A stretch of 64,000 nucleotides of DNA. It comes from an uncultured Planctomycetales bacterium (GTDB taxonomy: Bacteria; Omnitrophota; Gorgyraeia; Zapsychrales; JAHFFX01). The position numbers and the translations under genes are program-made. Below the pieces are notes generated by a model, which ran no database searches, was not told where the DNA came from, and saw only the letters and a program-made list of their open reading frames with translations. The DNA lies in contig CAYXGG010000004.1 in assembly GCA_964464475.1 (NCBI GenBank), positions 4,940-68,939 of the forward strand, written 5' to 3'. Positions 6,083-15,895 of the stretch are shown here, piece by piece; the stretch's first letter is position 1; every line of letters begins with the position of its first letter.

Positions 6083-7473
6083 TTTTCCTCCTTGTGGTTT
6101 TGGTCAACAGGGCAGGTCCCCAGTTGACACAGATAAGCCGCCGCTTCATGATCACTGGGATCAAGTCGCACGACTTTACGAAAATTCTCAGCAGCTTCTG
6201 AATTTCGTCCCAGTCTTAAATTTTCTTGGCCCAATAAAAAATGAACCCTCGCACTTTGTCCGGCAAATCGCGCGGTGTATTCAAATAAACTTAACGCGTT
6301 GTGCCAATAATTATTGTGAACCACCGTCCCATAACTCAAAAAAAGCAAGTACCCGACTAAGCTTAGATTACGAACTTGGCTTTCCCAACGAAAATTCTTT
6401 AAACCCTCGGTGACCAAACAACACGTCGCCAGCCATATACCCCAGGATGGGAAATACAACCAACCTTCCGCCATATACGCATTAATCGGAAAAATCGAAA
6501 CCGGTAGCAACGTCACCATAAACCACCCAATCCCCAAAGCTACCAGCGGCTTTCGCTGTCGCCACCAGAAAAACAATCCGAGCAAACCTAACCACAGCAT
6601 TAGCCCTAACCGAAAAGTTGTATTTCCCGTAGTAAACAGAAAATTCCCATACTCCATGTGCAACTGCTGAGGAAAAAACAACAACTTAAAATATTGAACT
6701 ACCGCGACAAAAAAACCAGGAATCTTTAAATACAATGGAACATCATACCTAAGTGGGAACAGCACATCGTAAACCACCGTCAGTCGCCATCCCAAATAAA
6801 ATACCGTCAAAGCGAGCAAACCAAGAAATAATTTAGGTTGCCAAGTTTTTGGCTGTGTCAGGTGATAGGCTCCCAACAACACAGGAAAAATAATCGCGTG
6901 CTCTTTAGCTAACAAAGCTAGAACATAACAACCCAAACAAACTAATGACCAACAAACCGTTGTCTGCGATTTGGTCTTAATGTACGCAATCCAAGAAACT
7001 AATAAGAAAAAAGCACATAGAATGTCTGCCCGGGCGGAAATATAAGCCACGACGGATGTATGAACGGGATGCGCCGCCCAGATTAAACTGGCACAAAGCG
7101 ATACCCCCTGCTTTCCCGTTAACGCCAGCAACAAAAAATATCCCGCTATGGCAACACACGCATGCCCCGCAACACTCACCCCATGAAAAATAACGGGATT
7201 AAGCCCTCCTAAACAATAATTAATGCAATAAGAAAGATTCTGGAGCGGACGGTAAAAATTAAAACTTTTTTGGCTTCCCGCAGCCAAATCAGTTAATAAA
7301 ATATTTTTCCACTGGCAGACTGGATGAATAAAAGAATTGTTCGTCACGAGGGCTCGATCATCCCAAACAAAATCCCCTCGTAGCGAATTAGCATACAGAA
7401 AAATAACCAGCACCAGGAGCAACAGGACACTGGTCGATCGAGAAAAAATACGTGCTGAGAAATCCATAGGCAA
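6079..7473 (-). CDS. Polytopic membrane protein with C-terminal TPR repeats (TMTC/DUF1736-like, glycosyltransferase-39-like)
   Basis: N-terminal YANSLRGDFVWDD motif typical of TMTC/DUF1736 proteins, many TM segments, and a C-terminal TPR-like segment (AAENFRKVVRLDPSDHEAAAYL). Confidence 0.5.
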   Translation of the reverse strand: MPMDFSARIFSRSTSVLLLLVLVIFLYANSLRGDFVWDDRALVTNNSFIHPVCQWKNILLTDLAAGSQKSFNFYRPLQNLSYCINYCLGGLNPVIFHGVSVAGHACVAIAGYFLLLALTGKQGVSLCASLIWAAHPVHTSVVAYISARADILCAFFLLVSWIAYIKTKSQTTVCWSLVCLGCYVLALLAKEHAIIFPVLLGAYHLTQPKTWQPKLFLGLLALTVFYLGWRLTVVYDVLFPLRYDVPLYLKIPGFFVAVVQYFKLLFFPQQLHMEYGNFLFTTGNTTFRLGLMLWLGLLGLFFWWRQRKPLVALGIGWFMVTLLPVSIFPINAYMAEGWLYFPSWGIWLATCCLVTEGLKNFRWESQVRNLSLVGYLLFLSYGTVVHNNYWHNALSLFEYTARFAGQSARVHFLLGQENLRLGRNSEAAENFRKVVRLDPSDHEAAAYLCQLGTCPVDQNHKEEK

Positions 7474-10332: not shown

Positions 10333-11952
10333 CTACCGTCTCCCCCCACCTAACAGTGATCCAAGCACCCCGCGCATAATTTGCCGGCCCACTTGGCTGG
10401 CAGCCGAACGCGCCGCGCTTTTAGCCATTGATTCAAAAATAGTATCTTTAGGCCGCCCTGGAGATCGCCGAGGCTGCGGATCATAGCCAGGTTGGGGCGC
10501 GATCACAATACGATCTTCTTGAGAAGAAGGGGCCCGAGGTGATGTCCCGGATTGAGAAGCTTTAAATCGATCTAACTTAGCCTGCTGTTGTGCCTGAGCA
10601 GATTGGGCGGCTTTTTCGGCCTGCTGCTGAGCCTGCTGCTGTTCAACCCGCGCTTTTAAGACCTCAAACGCCGACTCCCGATCAACTTGTTGTTCATAGT
10701 GTCCCTGGACTAAAGAAGTACTGATTACCTCCCGACGCTGTTCAACGGAAATGGGACCGATATGGCCTTGCGGAGGATAAATAAAAGCCCGTTCGACCAC
10801 GCCTGGCGACCCCTTATCATCCAAAAAAGAAATCAACGCTTCTCCGATTTCTAACTCAACAATCACTTTTTCAGTATTGAGATTCGGATTGGCCCGAAAC
10901 GTTTGCGCGGCGGCCTTAACAGCCTTCTGATCCTGAGGGGTGAACGCTCGCAATGCATGCTGCACCCGGTTGCCGAGTTGACCTAAAACTTTTTCAGGAA
11001 CATCCAAAGGATTCTGAGTAATAAAATAAACGCCAACGCCTTTGGAACGAATCAAGCGCACGACCTGTTCAATCTTATCTTGCAAAAAATCTGGGGTGTC
11101 TTCAAAAAGTAAGTGTGCTTCATCAAAGAAAAAAACCAATTTAGGCTTTGCTAAATCTCCGACTTCCGGCAAATTTTCATAAAGCTCGGAAAGCATCCAC
11201 AACAAAAAAGTAGCATACAGTTTAGGCGATAAAATAAGCTTACTTGCCGCCAACACATTAATCATGCCGCGCCCATCGGCCGCGTTTTGCATAAAATCCT
11301 GCAAATTCAGAGCCGGTTCGCCAAAAAACTGCCCACCACCTTGTTGTTCTAGCATCAGCAAATTTCTTTGGATTGCGCCGACACTCGCGGTGGAGATATT
11401 TCCGTACTGCAGCGTCAGCTGCTTTCCCTGCTCGCCAATAAACTGTACCATCGCTCTTAAATCTTTTAAGTCCACAAGCAATAATCCATTATCATCGGCC
11501 ACTTGAAATAATATGGTCAAAACACCCGCCTGGGTTTCATTTAAATTAAGAATACGCGCTAAAAGAATCGGCCCCATCTCAGAAACTGTCGCTCGAACCG
11601 GATGCCCATCTTGACCAAAAACATCCCAAAACATCACCGGAAAGCCCGAATAGGAATGCCCGCTTAAACCCAACTTGGTGACTCGCTCAGCGACTTTGGC
11701 ATTCCCTCCTCCCGGCTGGCTAACCCCGGAGAAATCGCCTTTAATATCCGCCACAAAAACCGGCACGCCTGCCAAGCTAAATTGCTCAGCTAACACCTGC
11801 AACGTCACGGTTTTACCCGTTCCGGTCGCACCAGCAATTAACCCATGCCGGTTCGCCATTTTAGGCAAAAGACAAAAATCTTGAAGTTCACGACGGGCTA
11901 GCGGCAAAGATTGCAAAAATTGACTATTCATCGATTTCCTTTCGAAGTTCAA
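10333..11952 (-). CDS. DUF853-family P-loop ATPase (YjgR / HerA-like helicase domain)
   Basis: Walker [13 protein letters not shown] near the N-terminus; length and Q/A-rich C-terminal tail typical of YjgR/DUF853. Confidence 0.7.
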
Positions 11953-12184
11953 AGTTAATGGAGCCTCACGGGCAAGCCCGTAATTTTCTGCAAGGGCGGA
12001 TAAAATTTTGAAATTATTATACTCAAAATTCCCATTTAAGGGAAAAACTAACTTAAGAACTTTTTACCCCAAAACAACTCCGCATCATAATTATTAACAA
12101 GCACTTACACTTGAACCATTGCTTTCCCCTACCCTCATGTTATACTTCGGGCAAAGTATTCTTCCGCTCTTTATTGATTTCGAT

Positions 12185-12315
12185 CAAGGTAAACCATTCG
12201 TAAGAATGGGACACAAAGCTACGCGCAATTCCTGAGCTTTTTATCAGCAATTGCCGCCCCGAACGCGGGGAGGGCCCGACTGCAGCAGCATCGCAAGGGG
12301 TAGCCAGTTGCCGAA
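12185..12315 (+). promoter_or_regulatory. Candidate c-di-GMP-I (GEMM) riboswitch aptamer in the 5' leader of the minor-pilin operon
   Basis: Three blocks match GEMM-I (Vc2-type) conserved sequence in the correct order. The first is GGUAAACC followed by a GNRA-capped hairpin CCAUUC-GUAA-GAAUGG. The second is GGGACACAAAGCU (compare GGGACGCAAAGCC). The third is GGGGUAGCCAGUUGCCGA (compare GGUAGCGGGGUUACCGA). P3 carries an insertion. The consensus is recalled from memory, not searched. Confidence 0.5.
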
Positions 12316-12366
12316 TCTAACGACACTTTAATTTTCTTAACACTGTGCTGTGTGGCGCATCTTGTG

Positions 12367-12400
12367 ACCTATTTCTTATTCGAAATAGGTCTTTTTTATT
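12367..12400 (+). terminator. Intrinsic terminator, candidate riboswitch expression platform, 28 nt upstream of the pilin start codon
   Basis: Perfect 10-bp stem gacctatttc/gaaataggtc with loop ttattc, followed by ttttttatt. Confidence 0.6.
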
Positions 12401-12427
12401 AAACCTTAGTTTTGAAGGAATACAGCT

Positions 12428-12892
12428 ATGCTAAAAAAAATATCTCGCAAGTTAAAATATTCAAGCGGCTTTACTCTGCCAGAACTCATGATTTCCTGCC
12501 TTATTATTATGCCGATACTCGTGGGAGGCATTTTTACGTTCATTCAATGCTTAGAGCTGTCCGAATTATCAGGAAACATGTCTACAGCTATTCTGGGAAC
12601 CCAAACGCTCATTTCACAAATCGAGGACTCGGCGTTTAATCAAATCTTTAGCAATTATAACAACACGACCTTCTCACTTTCCGGACTAACGGGAGCAGGT
12701 GTCACCTATGTTGATAACTCCGATCCAGATTTACTAAAAATCACCAACACTTTCTGTTGGCGACAAAAAAGCGGCAGAGTCATCGGAGAAGATAAAAATT
12801 TAAATGGCCAACTAAACGCCGGTGAAGATAGCAACGGCAACGGGATTCTGGATTCTCCCGTACAACTAGCTACTCTTATTTACAATGAATAA
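12428..12892 (+). CDS. Type IV pilus minor pilin / pseudopilin (prepilin-type N-terminal cleavage/methylation domain)
   Basis: N-terminus ...SGFTLPELMISCLIIMPIL matches the prepilin peptidase motif G|FTLxE plus a hydrophobic helix; GAAGGAA ribosome-binding site upstream. Confidence 0.7.
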   Translation: MLKKISRKLKYSSGFTLPELMISCLIIMPILVGGIFTFIQCLELSELSGNMSTAILGTQTLISQIEDSAFNQIFSNYNNTTFSLSGLTGAGVTYVDNSDPDLLKITNTFCWRQKSGRVIGEDKNLNGQLNAGEDSNGNGILDSPVQLATLIYNE

Positions 12893-13673
12893 CCAACGGT
12901 CCCCCTCAGCCGGATTTACCCTCACTGAACTCATGGTGGTGACGATCCTTTCCGCCATTGTGGGGATGGCTAGTTTGATGATGATTGTCTCCGGCCAGAA
13001 ATTACTGACTCACACTGAGCATCAAATCCGCTTACAGGAGAACGCGCGACTCTTTATGCATCGGCTGGCCCGCGAACTGCAGGAATCTGGTCGTGATCAA
13101 AATGGTAATTTAAAAGTAACGATTCAAGACAATACGGGAACCAATGGTTCAGATATTCTACGTTTCTCCGTTCCCATCTGCCCTTGCGGTAGGAATGTCA
13201 TGGATGACAACGGTAATGTGCGTTCATGGGGCGCACCCATCATCTGGGGACAAACAGGGTGCAACAACGATCCTCCCGTCGAGACGAACGGCAAAGTGAT
13301 TATTTGTCATTTACCTCCGGGAAATCCCGGCAACCAACAAACGTTACAAGTTTCCCCCTCTTCGGTGAAAGCGCATTTAGCCCATGGGGACTGGATAGGA
13401 AACTGCAATACCTGTAATCCGACCACCTACACGAATCACTATGTGGAGTATTCCCTTGATGCCAACAACAAGGTTATTCGTAAAATTTTAGATTCAACAC
13501 TAACCACAATCTCGCAAACAACGTTTGCCTTATTGGTGACAGATTTTCAAGTTTCTTTAAACGTCGCCCAAACCGTGGTCACCGTCAACACGACATTTAC
13601 GCAAGCGTCGCAGCAAACGCAAACACAAACGCTGATGCAGACCATCAAAGTAATTTTGAAGAATCGAGGATAG
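12885..13673 (+). CDS. Type IV pilus minor pilin (PilW-like; prepilin-type N-terminal domain)
   Basis: N-terminus SAGFTLTELMVVTILSAIVG; its start overlaps the upstream gene's stop (operon). Confidence 0.65.
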   Translation: MNNQRSPSAGFTLTELMVVTILSAIVGMASLMMIVSGQKLLTHTEHQIRLQENARLFMHRLARELQESGRDQNGNLKVTIQDNTGTNGSDILRFSVPICPCGRNVMDDNGNVRSWGAPIIWGQTGCNNDPPVETNGKVIICHLPPGNPGNQQTLQVSPSSVKAHLAHGDWIGNCNTCNPTTYTNHYVEYSLDANNKVIRKILDSTLTTISQTTFALLVTDFQVSLNVAQTVVTVNTTFTQASQQTQTQTLMQTIKVILKNRG

Positions 13674-13676
13674 CTT

Positions 13677-15371
13677 ATGAAACTACACGCTCAGCAAGGA
13701 TCTATGTATATTTATACCTTAGGGGTTTTCTTTACCATCGCTTCGATTAGCGGAATTTTTCTATTGCGATCCGTTAATGCCAGCAAAAGTACGCAAATCG
13801 CTACCTCTTCTCTAAAAGCTTATATCGTTGGACAAGGCGCCGCGCAGGCCGCCCTCCGACAGGTTGACACTTTAATTAATAGCTATTTATTGACCACTCT
13901 CTCAAACACCAGTCCTAGCGGTGTTATTAATTACGCGACCAGCAAAGTAGCGTCAGGAGATGGTATCGGCTGGCTGGTTTATTCAACTCGCAATAATAAC
14001 GTCGCCGTACTGACTCAAAATGGCGAACAAGCTGAATACAGCGGCAGCGGGACGCTCGCGACCGGAACGTATCAATTCAATATTATTATTACTGAGAAAT
14101 CAGACCCCACCTCGGCCGGCGCCGACGCCTGGGATTTTCCATTTAGCTACAAAGTGTTGGCTCGGGGAATCTCTGCAGGCCAGAGCAATGATATCGCCAC
14201 CAGCGGAGATTTTACCGTGCGCGTCCAGCGGGACAATTTTGCCAAATTCGCGCTTTTCACTAATGACCAAACAACTCCCTCGGGGACTAACGTCTGGTTT
14301 ACGGATAAAACTAATTTTTCCGGCCCTGTGCATACCAACACCCGCTTTAATTTCGCCTTAAATCCCAGCGGAACTTTTACGGACGCCGTAACACAGCATT
14401 ATCAAACCGCACGATTTTATAATAGTGGCTCTTCCCTGCTTTTAGATGCCAGTAGCAACGGCACGAAAGACGTTCCTGTGTTTCAAGATAGCTTTACTCG
14501 GGACGAAGATTTCGTGACCCTTTCTTCAGCCACCCAACAAACCGACATGGTCACTCAGGCCAAAGGAAGCAACACTTATTCAACTAATGGTATTTATATC
14601 CCCAACAGTGGTGGAAATCTAACCGCCGGAATTTATGTTCGGGGCGATAGTAATATCAGCATGTCGATCAACGGTAGTCAACAAGCCGTCTATACCATTA
14701 CCCAAGGAGCGACAACCAAAACTGTCACCGTTGATCGTACAAACAATCAAACAATCGTCCAGGATTCTAGCGGGACCACCACTTATGCTGGCCTTCCCGA
14801 TGGGCAGGATGACGCCGGGACCCTTATTTATGTTGAAGGAGATGTTGATAGTCTGCAAGGAACCGTTCAAGAAGATACTGAACTGACCATCGGCAGCAGT
14901 GCAGATATTGTTATTACCAATCACGTCCAGTACGAAAGTTATACGCCGGGCAGCGGCACACCTGGGACGGTCGGTTACGTTCCGCCTTCCGTGGACAGCG
15001 CTGATAACTTGCTCGGATTGGTTTCCTGGGGCGGCAATGTACGTGTAGGAACCGGCGCTCCGAATGACATCAACATTCACGGCACCGTTATGTCACAAAA
15101 CGGCGTCATGACGGTTGATGATTATAACAACACTTCCGTCGGTCCACGAGGAACGGCGACGCTGTTAGGTGGGGTCATCTCTGATGACTACGGAGCTTTT
15201 GGATTATTTAATAGTTCGACGGGACTCGCTACCGCTGGCTATGGCCGCAATTTTGTCTATGACCAACGCATGCTGGCGGGAAAAGCGCCGCCCTACTTTC
15301 CTTCGTTGGATACGTTTATCGCTTTCACTAATGATATTACGGACAAGTTAGTCTGGCAGGAAGGACAATAA
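13677..15371 (+). CDS. Large PilX-like pilus assembly / putative tip-associated protein
   Basis: 564 aa. N-terminal hydrophobic helix in PilX-N style (MKLHAQQGSMYIYTLGVFFTIASISGIFLL), then a long T/S/G/N-rich beta-type region. Confidence 0.45.
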   Translation: MKLHAQQGSMYIYTLGVFFTIASISGIFLLRSVNASKSTQIATSSLKAYIVGQGAAQAALRQVDTLINSYLLTTLSNTSPSGVINYATSKVASGDGIGWLVYSTRNNNVAVLTQNGEQAEYSGSGTLATGTYQFNIIITEKSDPTSAGADAWDFPFSYKVLARGISAGQSNDIATSGDFTVRVQRDNFAKFALFTNDQTTPSGTNVWFTDKTNFSGPVHTNTRFNFALNPSGTFTDAVTQHYQTARFYNSGSSLLLDASSNGTKDVPVFQDSFTRDEDFVTLSSATQQTDMVTQAKGSNTYSTNGIYIPNSGGNLTAGIYVRGDSNISMSINGSQQAVYTITQGATTKTVTVDRTNNQTIVQDSSGTTTYAGLPDGQDDAGTLIYVEGDVDSLQGTVQEDTELTIGSSADIVITNHVQYESYTPGSGTPGTVGYVPPSVDSADNLLGLVSWGGNVRVGTGAPNDINIHGTVMSQNGVMTVDDYNNTSVGPRGTATLLGGVISDDYGAFGLFNSSTGLATAGYGRNFVYDQRMLAGKAPPYFPSLDTFIAFTNDITDKLVWQEGQ

Positions 15372-15373
15372 TC

Positions 15374-15691
15374 ATGCGCGCGCGATCGTTAATCAAAATA
15401 ATTTTGCTTACCGCCTTATTAGTCGGCTTGGCGGCGGTAATTTATAAAATCAACGCTCATGTTAACAAAGAAATTGAAGAAATGACCGATCTCTCGCGCG
15501 CTTCCGTAGATGTTTCAGCAGCAGTTCCCTTAGATCCTCGATTTGTCGCTCAAGGCAAACTTCCGCAAATAGATCCCGCCAACGATCCCCTGGCTCCGGT
15601 TGAGAAAGTCAAACTTCCGCCCCCACAAAAGATTCGTCCCCTCACCGGAGCCTCCGATTCCATCACAGACCCTTATACGTTAGTACAATAA
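15374..15691 (+). CDS. Small membrane-anchored Pro-rich protein (pilus operon, unknown function)
   Basis: 105 aa with an N-terminal TM helix and a proline-rich tail; its start overlaps the preceding gene's stop (13677-15371). Confidence 0.35.
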   Translation: MRARSLIKIILLTALLVGLAAVIYKINAHVNKEIEEMTDLSRASVDVSAAVPLDPRFVAQGKLPQIDPANDPLAPVEKVKLPPPQKIRPLTGASDSITDPYTLVQ

Positions 15692-15895
15692 ACCCGGATT
15701 TTGCATTTGCAAAATCCCTGCCTGTCGCCATTATCAAACGGCAGACAGGCGCCCAAAGGGCCCCGCCAGGGCGGGGGATAAATACTTTCACCCAGATTAA
15801 TCAAAGGTAGTCAGTCAATTATTGCCGTTTTCCTGGATAAAACGGTATTGCGGTAGCCAATATAGAGCTTTGCTTTCCTTAGAACTACCCTTAAA

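Follow-up and report, generated by a model that had tools for sequence, protein, structure and literature searches.

A c-di-GMP class I riboswitch with a two-hairpin insertion upstream of a pilin-like operon in Omnitrophota

The operon and its leader

The window analyzed here, a 64,000-nucleotide (nt) stretch of contig CAYXGG010000004.1, contains a plus-strand operon of four genes preceded by an untranslated 5' leader. In the original prediction, the leader was read as a class I riboswitch (GEMM-I) for cyclic dimeric guanosine monophosphate (c-di-GMP), equipped with a terminator expression platform and controlling a minor-pilin operon. The leader is indeed a genuine c-di-GMP-I riboswitch, i.e., a member of a known RNA class, and its sequence predicts that it would bind c-di-GMP. 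The RNA found in Omnitrophota is a structural variant of this class, for which the phylum is new; the class is known for GEMM-I elements that precede pilus genes.

The aptamer is placed in the leader together with an expression platform, wherein promoter, aptamer, terminator, ribosome-binding site (RBS) and start codon follow one another in this order on the plus strand. The promoter (12119-12146) is composed of a -35 element, TTGCTT (12119-12124), and an extended -10 element, TGTTATACT (TGtTATACT, 12138-12146), from which the transcript would start near position 12153. The same TGnTATACT element, often accompanied by a TTGACA -35 element, is located 15-50 nt before the aptamer in nearly all of the relatives described below. 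The full extent of the aptamer is 12176-12317, as determined by comparison with these relatives, with the Rfam models RF01051 and RF03167 and with two covariance models of our own (R1 and R2). Downstream of the aptamer, a predicted intrinsic terminator (12366-12397) consists of a perfect 10-bp stem (12366-12375 paired with 12382-12391), a 6-nt loop and a U6 tract (12392-12397); the hairpin folds alone with an energy of -12.6 kcal/mol, and the stem-loop and U-tract of an intrinsic terminator are thus both in place. The perfect 10-bp hairpin and T6 had been predicted correctly, with the start set one base off, at 12367 instead of 12366. Of 44 related aptamer copies, 41 have a terminator 27-83 nt downstream, which bears out the proposed terminator expression platform. 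The RBS, GAAGGA (12414-12419), lies 8 nt before the ATG and is unpaired in both of the leader folds considered below. The ATG itself is found at 12428, 30 nt past the T-run and 28 nt past position 12400.

Gene 1 (12428-12892) codes for a 154-residue prepilin-type protein, in which the leader peptide MLKKISRKLKYSSG is followed by FTLPE; this protein matches N_methyl and TIGR02532 weakly, below their respective cutoffs. Gene 2 (12885-13673) codes for a 262-residue prepilin-type protein of minor-pilin-like character, with 23.9 bits for N_methyl (cutoff 21.2) and 18.6 bits for TIGR02532 (cutoff 16.3). The prepilin-type products of these genes agree with the minor-pilin operon proposed downstream of the riboswitch. 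Gene 3 (13677-15371) codes for a 564-residue protein that matches the DUF4900 family and is conserved across Omnitrophota, and gene 4 (15374-15691), the last of the operon, for a 105-residue protein with no significant family. All four genes are on the plus strand, and the operon is flanked on both sides by minus-strand genes. Neither a major pilin gene nor a GGDEF, EAL or HD-GYP motif was detected in the 64-kb window by regular expression, a result that says nothing about the c-di-GMP enzymes of the organism.

Aptamer identity and the insertion in P3

In a scan of the whole window against 4227 Rfam families, c-di-GMP-I (RF01051) was the sole match, scoring 41.1 bits against a gathering score of 35 (E = 1.3e-4). 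The proposed GEMM-I identity therefore stands, with a score above the threshold and with helices that covary among the relatives. Two families had been suggested for the check: RF01051 was recovered, and the other, c-di-GMP-II (RF01786), gave no match at the gathering score in the window, nor at E values up to 10 within 12100-12450. The alignment produced by RF01051 itself stops at 12244 and creates a spurious short second stem, its 3' half being mis-aligned because of an insertion in P3. The best full-length Rfam alignment of the aptamer is provided by RF03167 (c-di-GMP-I-GGC), which in a permissive scan of 12100-12450 aligned positions 12179-12316, covering the third conserved block and leaving a stretch of 72 nt unaligned. 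Its score of 42.0 bits is under the gathering score of 59, and the threshold of the GGC variant is thus missed. Model R1 was built from 16 compact Omnitrophota aptamers and model R2 from insertion-bearing (type A) aptamers, and both align the full 12174-12322, including the third block. With R1, one match was obtained in the window, at full length and with 53.9 bits; with R2, the window aptamer scored 90.3 bits, the lowest among the type-A group.

The relatives were collected through gene 3. Its DUF4900 protein has hundreds of orthologues of 55-63% identity, the named ones belonging to Candidatus Omnitrophota; 25 orthologues were aligned, and 80 orthologous loci (given below as L numbers, where needed) were fetched from species-representative genomes. 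Nearly all of these are Omnitrophota metagenome-assembled genomes, and one is Velamenicoccus archaeovorus. A loose regular expression for the GEMM-I core matched upstream of the operon in 19 loci, wherein GGU...ACAC alternates with GGC...ACGC. Model R1 revealed the aptamer in about 44 loci, and the search with R2 lifted the census to about 46 of the 80 Omnitrophota species genomes, upstream of the orthologous pilin/DUF4900 cluster. The same arrangement of riboswitch, promoter and terminator precedes the orthologous cluster across those relatives. Their leaders share a characteristic pattern: GGYAAACC, a P2 hairpin with a GNRA loop, GGGACRCAAARCUA-NN-GGGYCC...GGRNAGCCAGYURCC, a variable linker, and a terminator of conserved sequence. 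The 16 compact aptamers align cleanly, and RNAalifold yields the GEMM-I fold from them, with compensatory changes at 6 of 17 pairs. The P1/P2/P3 three-way junction is accordingly seen with covariation, in the compact as well as in the type-A alignment.

Several relatives possess two riboswitch copies (L042:986-1096 and 1794-1896; L030:1529-1674 and 1733-1897; L050:2694-2791 and 6161-6255; L013:195-375). Tandem arrangements occur among them, in which every copy has a terminator and a promoter to itself. In L050, one copy is placed on either side of the operon, and a further major pilin gene follows the second.

The three blocks and the GUAA-capped hairpin of the original prediction are all present in the right order, and their roles are confirmed by comparison with the relatives. 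P1, in which U12178 is bulged, was assigned from the sequence (12176-12182 paired with 12312-12317), and its pairs covary in the relatives (helix 1). The first block, GGUAAACC (12188-12195), begins with the ligand-contact residue G12188, which is followed by two residues paired across the core (element 12188-12190; G12189-C12214 and U12190-A12213), as placed by alignment to the Rfam consensus. The U12190-A12213 pair alternates with C-G in the relatives, 12 versus 4 in the compact alignment, as it does in the regular-expression matches. The P2 hairpin (12194-12209), CCAUUC-GUAA-GAAUGG, has stem strands at 12194-12199 and 12204-12209 and a GYRA-type GUAA loop at 12200-12203; compensatory changes occur at 3 of its 6 pairs, and folded alone it has an energy of -6.5 kcal/mol. 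The second block, GGGACACAAAGCU (12208-12220), runs from the end of P2 through the junction GACACAA (12210-12216, by alignment to the Rfam consensus), which holds the pocket residue A12215, into the 5' strand of P3a (AGCU, 12217-12220). The latter is paired with AGUU at 12306-12309 (helix 4 in the type-A alignment), in which it is 100% paired, the second pair being G-U, A-U or G-C. Distal P3 (12272-12305) comprises GG 12272-12273 paired with CC 12304-12305 and GCCC 12274-12277 paired with GGGU 12298-12301, with AG 12302-12303 unpaired and a loop at 12278-12297; here, C-G alternates with U-A, 13 versus 7 (helix 7). The third block, GGGGUAGCCAGUUGCCGA (12297-12314), leads into the closing segment (12306-12317), which according to the RF03167 alignment contains the 3' strand of P3a (12306-12309), the unpaired G12310, C12311 and the 3' strand of P1 (12312-12317).

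The GUAA loop provides P2 with the GNRA/GYRA tetraloop of the class and assigns the aptamer to the GYRA subtype. Tetraloop subtypes of GEMM-I have been described, including one with a GYRA-type P2 loop and without the 11-nt receptor (PMC11218506). In the window, the GUAA loop may find a helical receptor in the GGGCCC/GGG pairs of distal P3.

By alignment to the Rfam consensus, G12188, A12215 and C12311 are the equivalents of G20, A47 and C92 of Vc2, the residues contacted by c-di-GMP; C92 pairs with the ligand, and A47 lies in the ligand pocket (PMC5888326). Recognition of another ligand, e.g., a different cyclic dinucleotide or related compound such as 3'3'-cyclic GMP-AMP (3'3'-cGAMP, selectively bound by GEMM-Ib), or the unknown ligand proposed for the GGC and UAU variants, is most improbable. 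It could be suspected from the assignment of several relatives (L018, L039, L042, L052, L007 and L024) to c-di-GMP-I-GGC as the best of the Rfam clan (61-65 bits, gathering score 59), and from the window's best full-length alignment, which is to that same variant model. The GGC variant, whose name we interpret from the two consensus lines, nevertheless requires a G at the A47 equivalent (consensus GACGCGAA). The window has GACACAAA, with A12215, and an A instead of a G occupies this distinguishing position in all relatives as well; together with the score of 42 bits against 59, this led us to reject the GGC assignment. Automated annotation would consequently give such relatives a wrong GGC label. 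GEMM-Ib is defined by an A at the position equivalent to G20, and was rejected since this residue is a G (G12188) in the window.

The insertion of about 45 nt in P3 that the original prediction pointed out is real, measures 49 nt (12222-12270) and represents a conserved, structured module. It is not a simple lengthening of P3: upon folding, two hairpins are formed side by side inside a 3-nt bulge of P3, thus creating a four-way junction. The first hairpin, i1 (12222-12256), contains the pairs 12222-12223/12255-12256, 12225-12230/12249-12254 and 12232-12235/12244-12247, with C12224 bulged, C12231 and C12248 mismatched, and a loop at 12236-12243. The second, i2 (12257-12270), is a 5-bp hairpin, CCCCG-AACG-CGGGG, also obtained by folding.

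The distance between GCUA and AGGGYCC is bimodal among the relatives: 1-2 nt in the compact aptamers and 49-103 nt in the window (49 nt), L011, L031 and L036, with no intermediate values; L001, whose anchor sequence differs slightly, also belongs to the long-gap group. When metagenome contigs were scanned with a pattern, 15 further window-like (type A) aptamers were obtained, all found by R1 and all with two hairpins at the identical site. The R2 search added copies in L021 and L030, such that 22 type-A aptamers were found, of which 20 are included in the alignment. MAFFT mis-registered the hairpins of the window in this set, and the 20 sequences were realigned with R2. In the resulting alignment, 95.1% of the cells are paired, compared to 30-48% in controls with slid 3' partners, and both sides are changed at 18 of 36 pairs; compensatory changes are found at 6 of 7 pairs in i1 (helix 5, 91.4% of cells paired) and equally at 6 of 7 pairs in i2 (helix 6, 98.5%), all of these figures being derived from a model-fitted alignment and hence biased toward the structure. 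The window row is the most divergent of the alignment, as seen in the C12224 bulge and the i2 stem of just 5 bp, both of them partly fitted.

Most type-A members share the sequence UCCCGAC-GU-UUCC...GGAA-GUCGGGA followed by CYCCGAC...GUCGGRG, including a 2-nt GU bulge in i1 (L088, L086, L094, L082, L083, L092, L011 and L093). The stems of i1 and i2 are alike in most members (CCCGAC/GUCGGG), as if duplicated. The window does not have the i1 motif.

Conserved sequence of this kind, GU bulge included, is what would be expected if the inserted hairpins were an independent functional module (i.e., a protein or second-ligand site) or a small mobile element, and a second lineage with two hairpins inserted elsewhere (type B, below) points the same way. 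The window, L084 and L085, however, retain the two hairpins with unrelated sequences and without the GU bulge, indicating a requirement for structure and not for a specific sequence. No further copies of the insertion were detected by BLAST against the window and 95 loci, where matches were at chance level (11-16 nt), which makes mobility unlikely; the mobile-element reading was rejected on this basis. We thus consider an independent module or mobile element very unlikely. The inserted hairpins are probably a structural decoration, wherein P3a and P3b would remain coaxially stacked and the hairpins would project sideways.

The insertion also bears on whether the aptamer works at all. Rfam scores are 57-65 bits for the compact relatives and 35-41 for the insertion-bearing ones, and the insertion therefore accounts for the lower score of the window (41 bits). 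Read differently, this low score, the lowest place within the type-A group (90.3 bits) and the short i2 would describe a degenerate aptamer, broken by the 49-nt insertion, in a leader that acts merely as a constitutive attenuator or terminator. Such decay is very improbable: the core nucleotides and all three ligand contacts are intact, the insertion is confined to a bulge with every core pair kept, and the low score reflects a gap penalty rather than a loss of conserved positions. Moreover, the insertion occupies the identical site in 22 aptamers, and both hairpins covary in the 20 that were aligned.

In L058 (1874-2043) and L026 (1944-2079), a second, independent insertion was observed (type B). 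It also consists of two hairpins, which here separate the GGGG that ends P2 from the ACAAAGC junction, i.e., they are located inside the ligand-pocket strand and not in P3.

Terminator, antiterminator and the direction of switching

Folding of the leader, as suggested with the original prediction, provided a candidate antiterminator, which would use P2 and the junction rather than P1. Its predicted 3' strand (12362-12379, plus strand) overlaps the 5' strand of the terminator and would form 16 pairs with 12200-12216, i.e., with the P2 loop, the P2 3' strand and the junction. The helix contains one bulge and one 1x1 mismatch, with a duplex energy of -14.2 kcal/mol. Folding of the transcript 12153-12381 gives a minimum-energy structure that contains it, and 16 pairs were reached by only 1 of 25 shuffles. 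Before the 3' strand of the terminator exists, the antiterminator fold has -59.9 kcal/mol, compared to -48.7 kcal/mol for a fold in which the aptamer is forced; in the complete leader, the most stable fold, calculated without ligand, contains P2 and the terminator (-69.2 kcal/mol). An antiterminator formed by the P1 3' strand or by the linker was rejected, as the linker ranges from 4 to 61 nt, is variable in sequence and exhibits no conserved pairing with the terminator.

The relatives were examined for the same complementarity. The 5' strands of their terminators are 82% pyrimidine (typically CCUAUUCUU), compared to 50% in 759 other terminator-like hairpins (p = 3e-20), and thereby resemble the 5' strand of P2. 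In most loci, a transcript folded as far as the terminator loop has the terminator 5' strand paired to the loop and 3' strand of P2. The duplex energy between the terminator 5' strand and the P2 segment is -10.2 kcal/mol on average, versus -5.7 for 663 other terminators (p = 2e-14) and -6.7 for shuffled sequences. Pairs were also counted in the minimum-energy folds, between the region from tetraloop through junction and the 5' side of the terminator plus 8 nt, with only the second region shuffled in the control. The genome loci have a mean of 7.3 pairs versus 1.0 when shuffled, with at least 7 pairs in 22 of 39 loci (Wilcoxon p 1.4e-4). In independent metagenome loci, which were not used in forming the idea, the corresponding values are 7.4 versus 0.6, with at least 7 pairs in 7 of 12 loci (Wilcoxon p 0.014).

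In the mechanism proposed here, the 12362-12379 segment would pair either with 12382-12391, giving the terminator, or with 12200-12216, giving the 16-bp antiterminator. With c-di-GMP bound, P2 and the pocket would be locked, the terminator would form and transcription would halt before the pilin genes (OFF). At low c-di-GMP, the 5' strand of the terminator would invade P2, possibly starting from an undocked tetraloop as a toehold, and the polymerase would read through (ON). The antiterminator excludes the bound aptamer because its helix takes up the 3' strand of P2 together with the pocket junction and its A12215. Since it thus excludes both the bound aptamer and the terminator, the ligand should cause termination. 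We consider it probable that the GEMM-I riboswitch controls the four-gene pilin-like operon via transcription termination, and that it is OFF at high c-di-GMP; both ligand binding and the direction of the switch are inferred here.

The reversed logic, in which c-di-GMP promotes read-through and the pilin-like genes are made at high c-di-GMP, has precedent in other c-di-GMP riboswitches that activate pilus genes, such as the c-di-GMP-II switch upstream of Clostridioides difficile pilA1, which turns pilus genes on. Termination could also be the default state, given that the fold with P2 and the terminator is the most stable one in the full leader, and the minimum-energy folds of about 40% of the relatives do not contain the predicted antiterminator. 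However, neither strand of the terminator is overlapped or sequestered by any part of the bound aptamer, the 3' strand of P1 ending 48 nt before the terminator stem, and the linker in between varies in both sequence and length. The sole conserved complementarity to the terminator resides in P2 and the pocket junction, which would be locked by the ligand, and this argues for an OFF switch. On balance, the reversed logic appears unlikely.

Several observations nevertheless weigh against the OFF mechanism and its structural basis. In the window, the duplex between the P2 3' strand and the terminator stem is weak (-6.9 kcal/mol, near the shuffled mean of -6.7), and the signal depends on the flanking UUGUG/CACAA pairs and the loop. 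The duplex-energy test gave a modest result in its metagenome replicate (-9.0 versus -7.1 kcal/mol). Besides the roughly 40% of relatives in which the antiterminator helix is missing from the minimum-energy fold, L018 and L005 have an altered P2 with no matching change in the terminator; P2 otherwise varied little across the relatives when checked for strict covariation with the terminator stem. The energy models leave out tertiary structure, ligand binding and kinetics. P2 is local and forms first, and the invading strand, about 160 nt downstream, must act fast enough. To these should be added the model-fitted nature of the type-A alignment and, in many relatives, a separate promoter past the terminator, on account of which the wiring differs between loci.

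The partner of the terminator is not the same in all members. In a GC-rich subgroup (L059:2659-2747, L063:2670-2758, L067:2671-2759 and L051:2687-2774), the terminator 5' strand GCCUGUCC is complementary to the 3' strand of P3, GGGACAGCC, and not to P2, which suggests that the antiterminator partner has shifted within the family.

The separate promoter is a consensus sigma-70 promoter, TTGACA-N17-TAnnAT, often with a conserved GAAAGGAGGTG spacer, that is found between the riboswitch terminator and the minor-pilin operon in many relatives (e.g., L066 ~1295-1480, L042 ~1950-2131, L041 ~2220-2406 and L056 ~2090-2270). It is followed by a 5' untranslated region of 130-170 nt and then by a major-pilin-like gene (GFTLVEIMIVVAIIALLA). 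These untranslated regions share a GUUAUCAUUC...UUCUGG stretch, for which no Rfam family reaches the gathering score. For the target of the riboswitch in such loci, the options include read-through that adds to or interferes with the second promoter, or a small open reading frame (L024, L045). The window contains neither the second promoter nor the major pilin gene.

Two features border the locus in the window. Divergent from the riboswitch promoter region, a minus-strand gene (10333-11952) codes for a HerA-like helicase/ATPase (PF05872, E = 2e-225), with no evident link to the pilin operon. At the other end, immediately past gene 4, the operon is separated from a convergent minus-strand gene by a 9-bp inverted repeat, GGATTTTGCAAATGCAAAATCC (15696-15717), which the scan designates as terminator-like on the minus strand and which may terminate transcription in both directions.

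Relation to known c-di-GMP riboswitches

Omnitrophota are uncultured and mostly ultra-small bacteria, in which type-4a pili are near-universal and have been associated with what may be a predatory or epibiotic way of life (PMC10066038). This main genomic survey of the phylum nowhere mentions c-di-GMP, and searches of an open-access library yielded no account of a riboswitch from Omnitrophota or of a GEMM-I RNA with a four-way junction. More than half of the sampled species genomes have the riboswitch before the pilin/DUF4900 cluster, which provides a testable link between the second messenger and the pilus. The present work also adds a well-supported four-way-junction variant to a well-studied aptamer, together with a candidate expression platform that would switch via P2 and the ligand pocket instead of P1. 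The Rfam model barely detects the insertion-bearing members and mis-aligns them, and they are therefore probably under-counted.

A broader proposal can be made, which we regard as speculative and, taken as a whole, doubtful. Type A would constitute a distinct structural subclass of c-di-GMP-I, in which the additional junction alters folding, affinity or kinetics or adds a second input; a P2 toehold gated by docking of the tetraloop would operate across the Omnitrophota switches; and c-di-GMP would control the pilus apparatus at the RNA level throughout the phylum. If the subclass and toehold were as described, c-di-GMP would be a phylum-wide, direct RNA-level regulator of a pilus apparatus proposed for host attachment in ultra-small bacteria.

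Compared with the known systems, the window aptamer has the three-helix architecture of Vc2 from Vibrio cholerae, the structural reference of RF01051, as well as its core, GGYAAAC...GACRCAAAGC...GCC, and the contacts G20, A47 and C92. Vc2 is distinguished by a GAAA tetraloop with its receptor and by a continuous P3, whereas the window has a GUAA loop, no 11-nt receptor and a P3 split into a four-way junction. The RF03167 variant has the same overall fold, and several relatives score above its threshold, but it carries a G where the window has A12215.

Cd1, the c-di-GMP-I riboswitch located before the flagellar operon of Clostridioides difficile, is a transcriptional OFF switch, in which the ligand favours an intrinsic terminator and switching proceeds via the 3' side of P1. 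Like Cd1, the window would thus have a terminator-based OFF switch in front of an operon for a cell-surface appendage, although the OFF logic of the window is deduced from its predicted helices. The two differ in that the predicted antiterminator of the window uses the P2 loop and 3' strand and the pocket junction, and not the 3' side of P1, and in that its genes are pilin-like and not flagellar. In Bc1 of Bacillus thuringiensis, a GEMM-I aptamer is followed by a spacer and by rho-independent terminator hairpins that are remodelled with c-di-GMP (PMC11218506), and the order of GEMM-I aptamer, spacer and rho-independent terminator is the same in the window. Bc1 has a GAAA loop with a receptor, two terminators that form without ligand, and both transcriptional and translational control (PMC11218506), whereas the window has one terminator and an exposed RBS.

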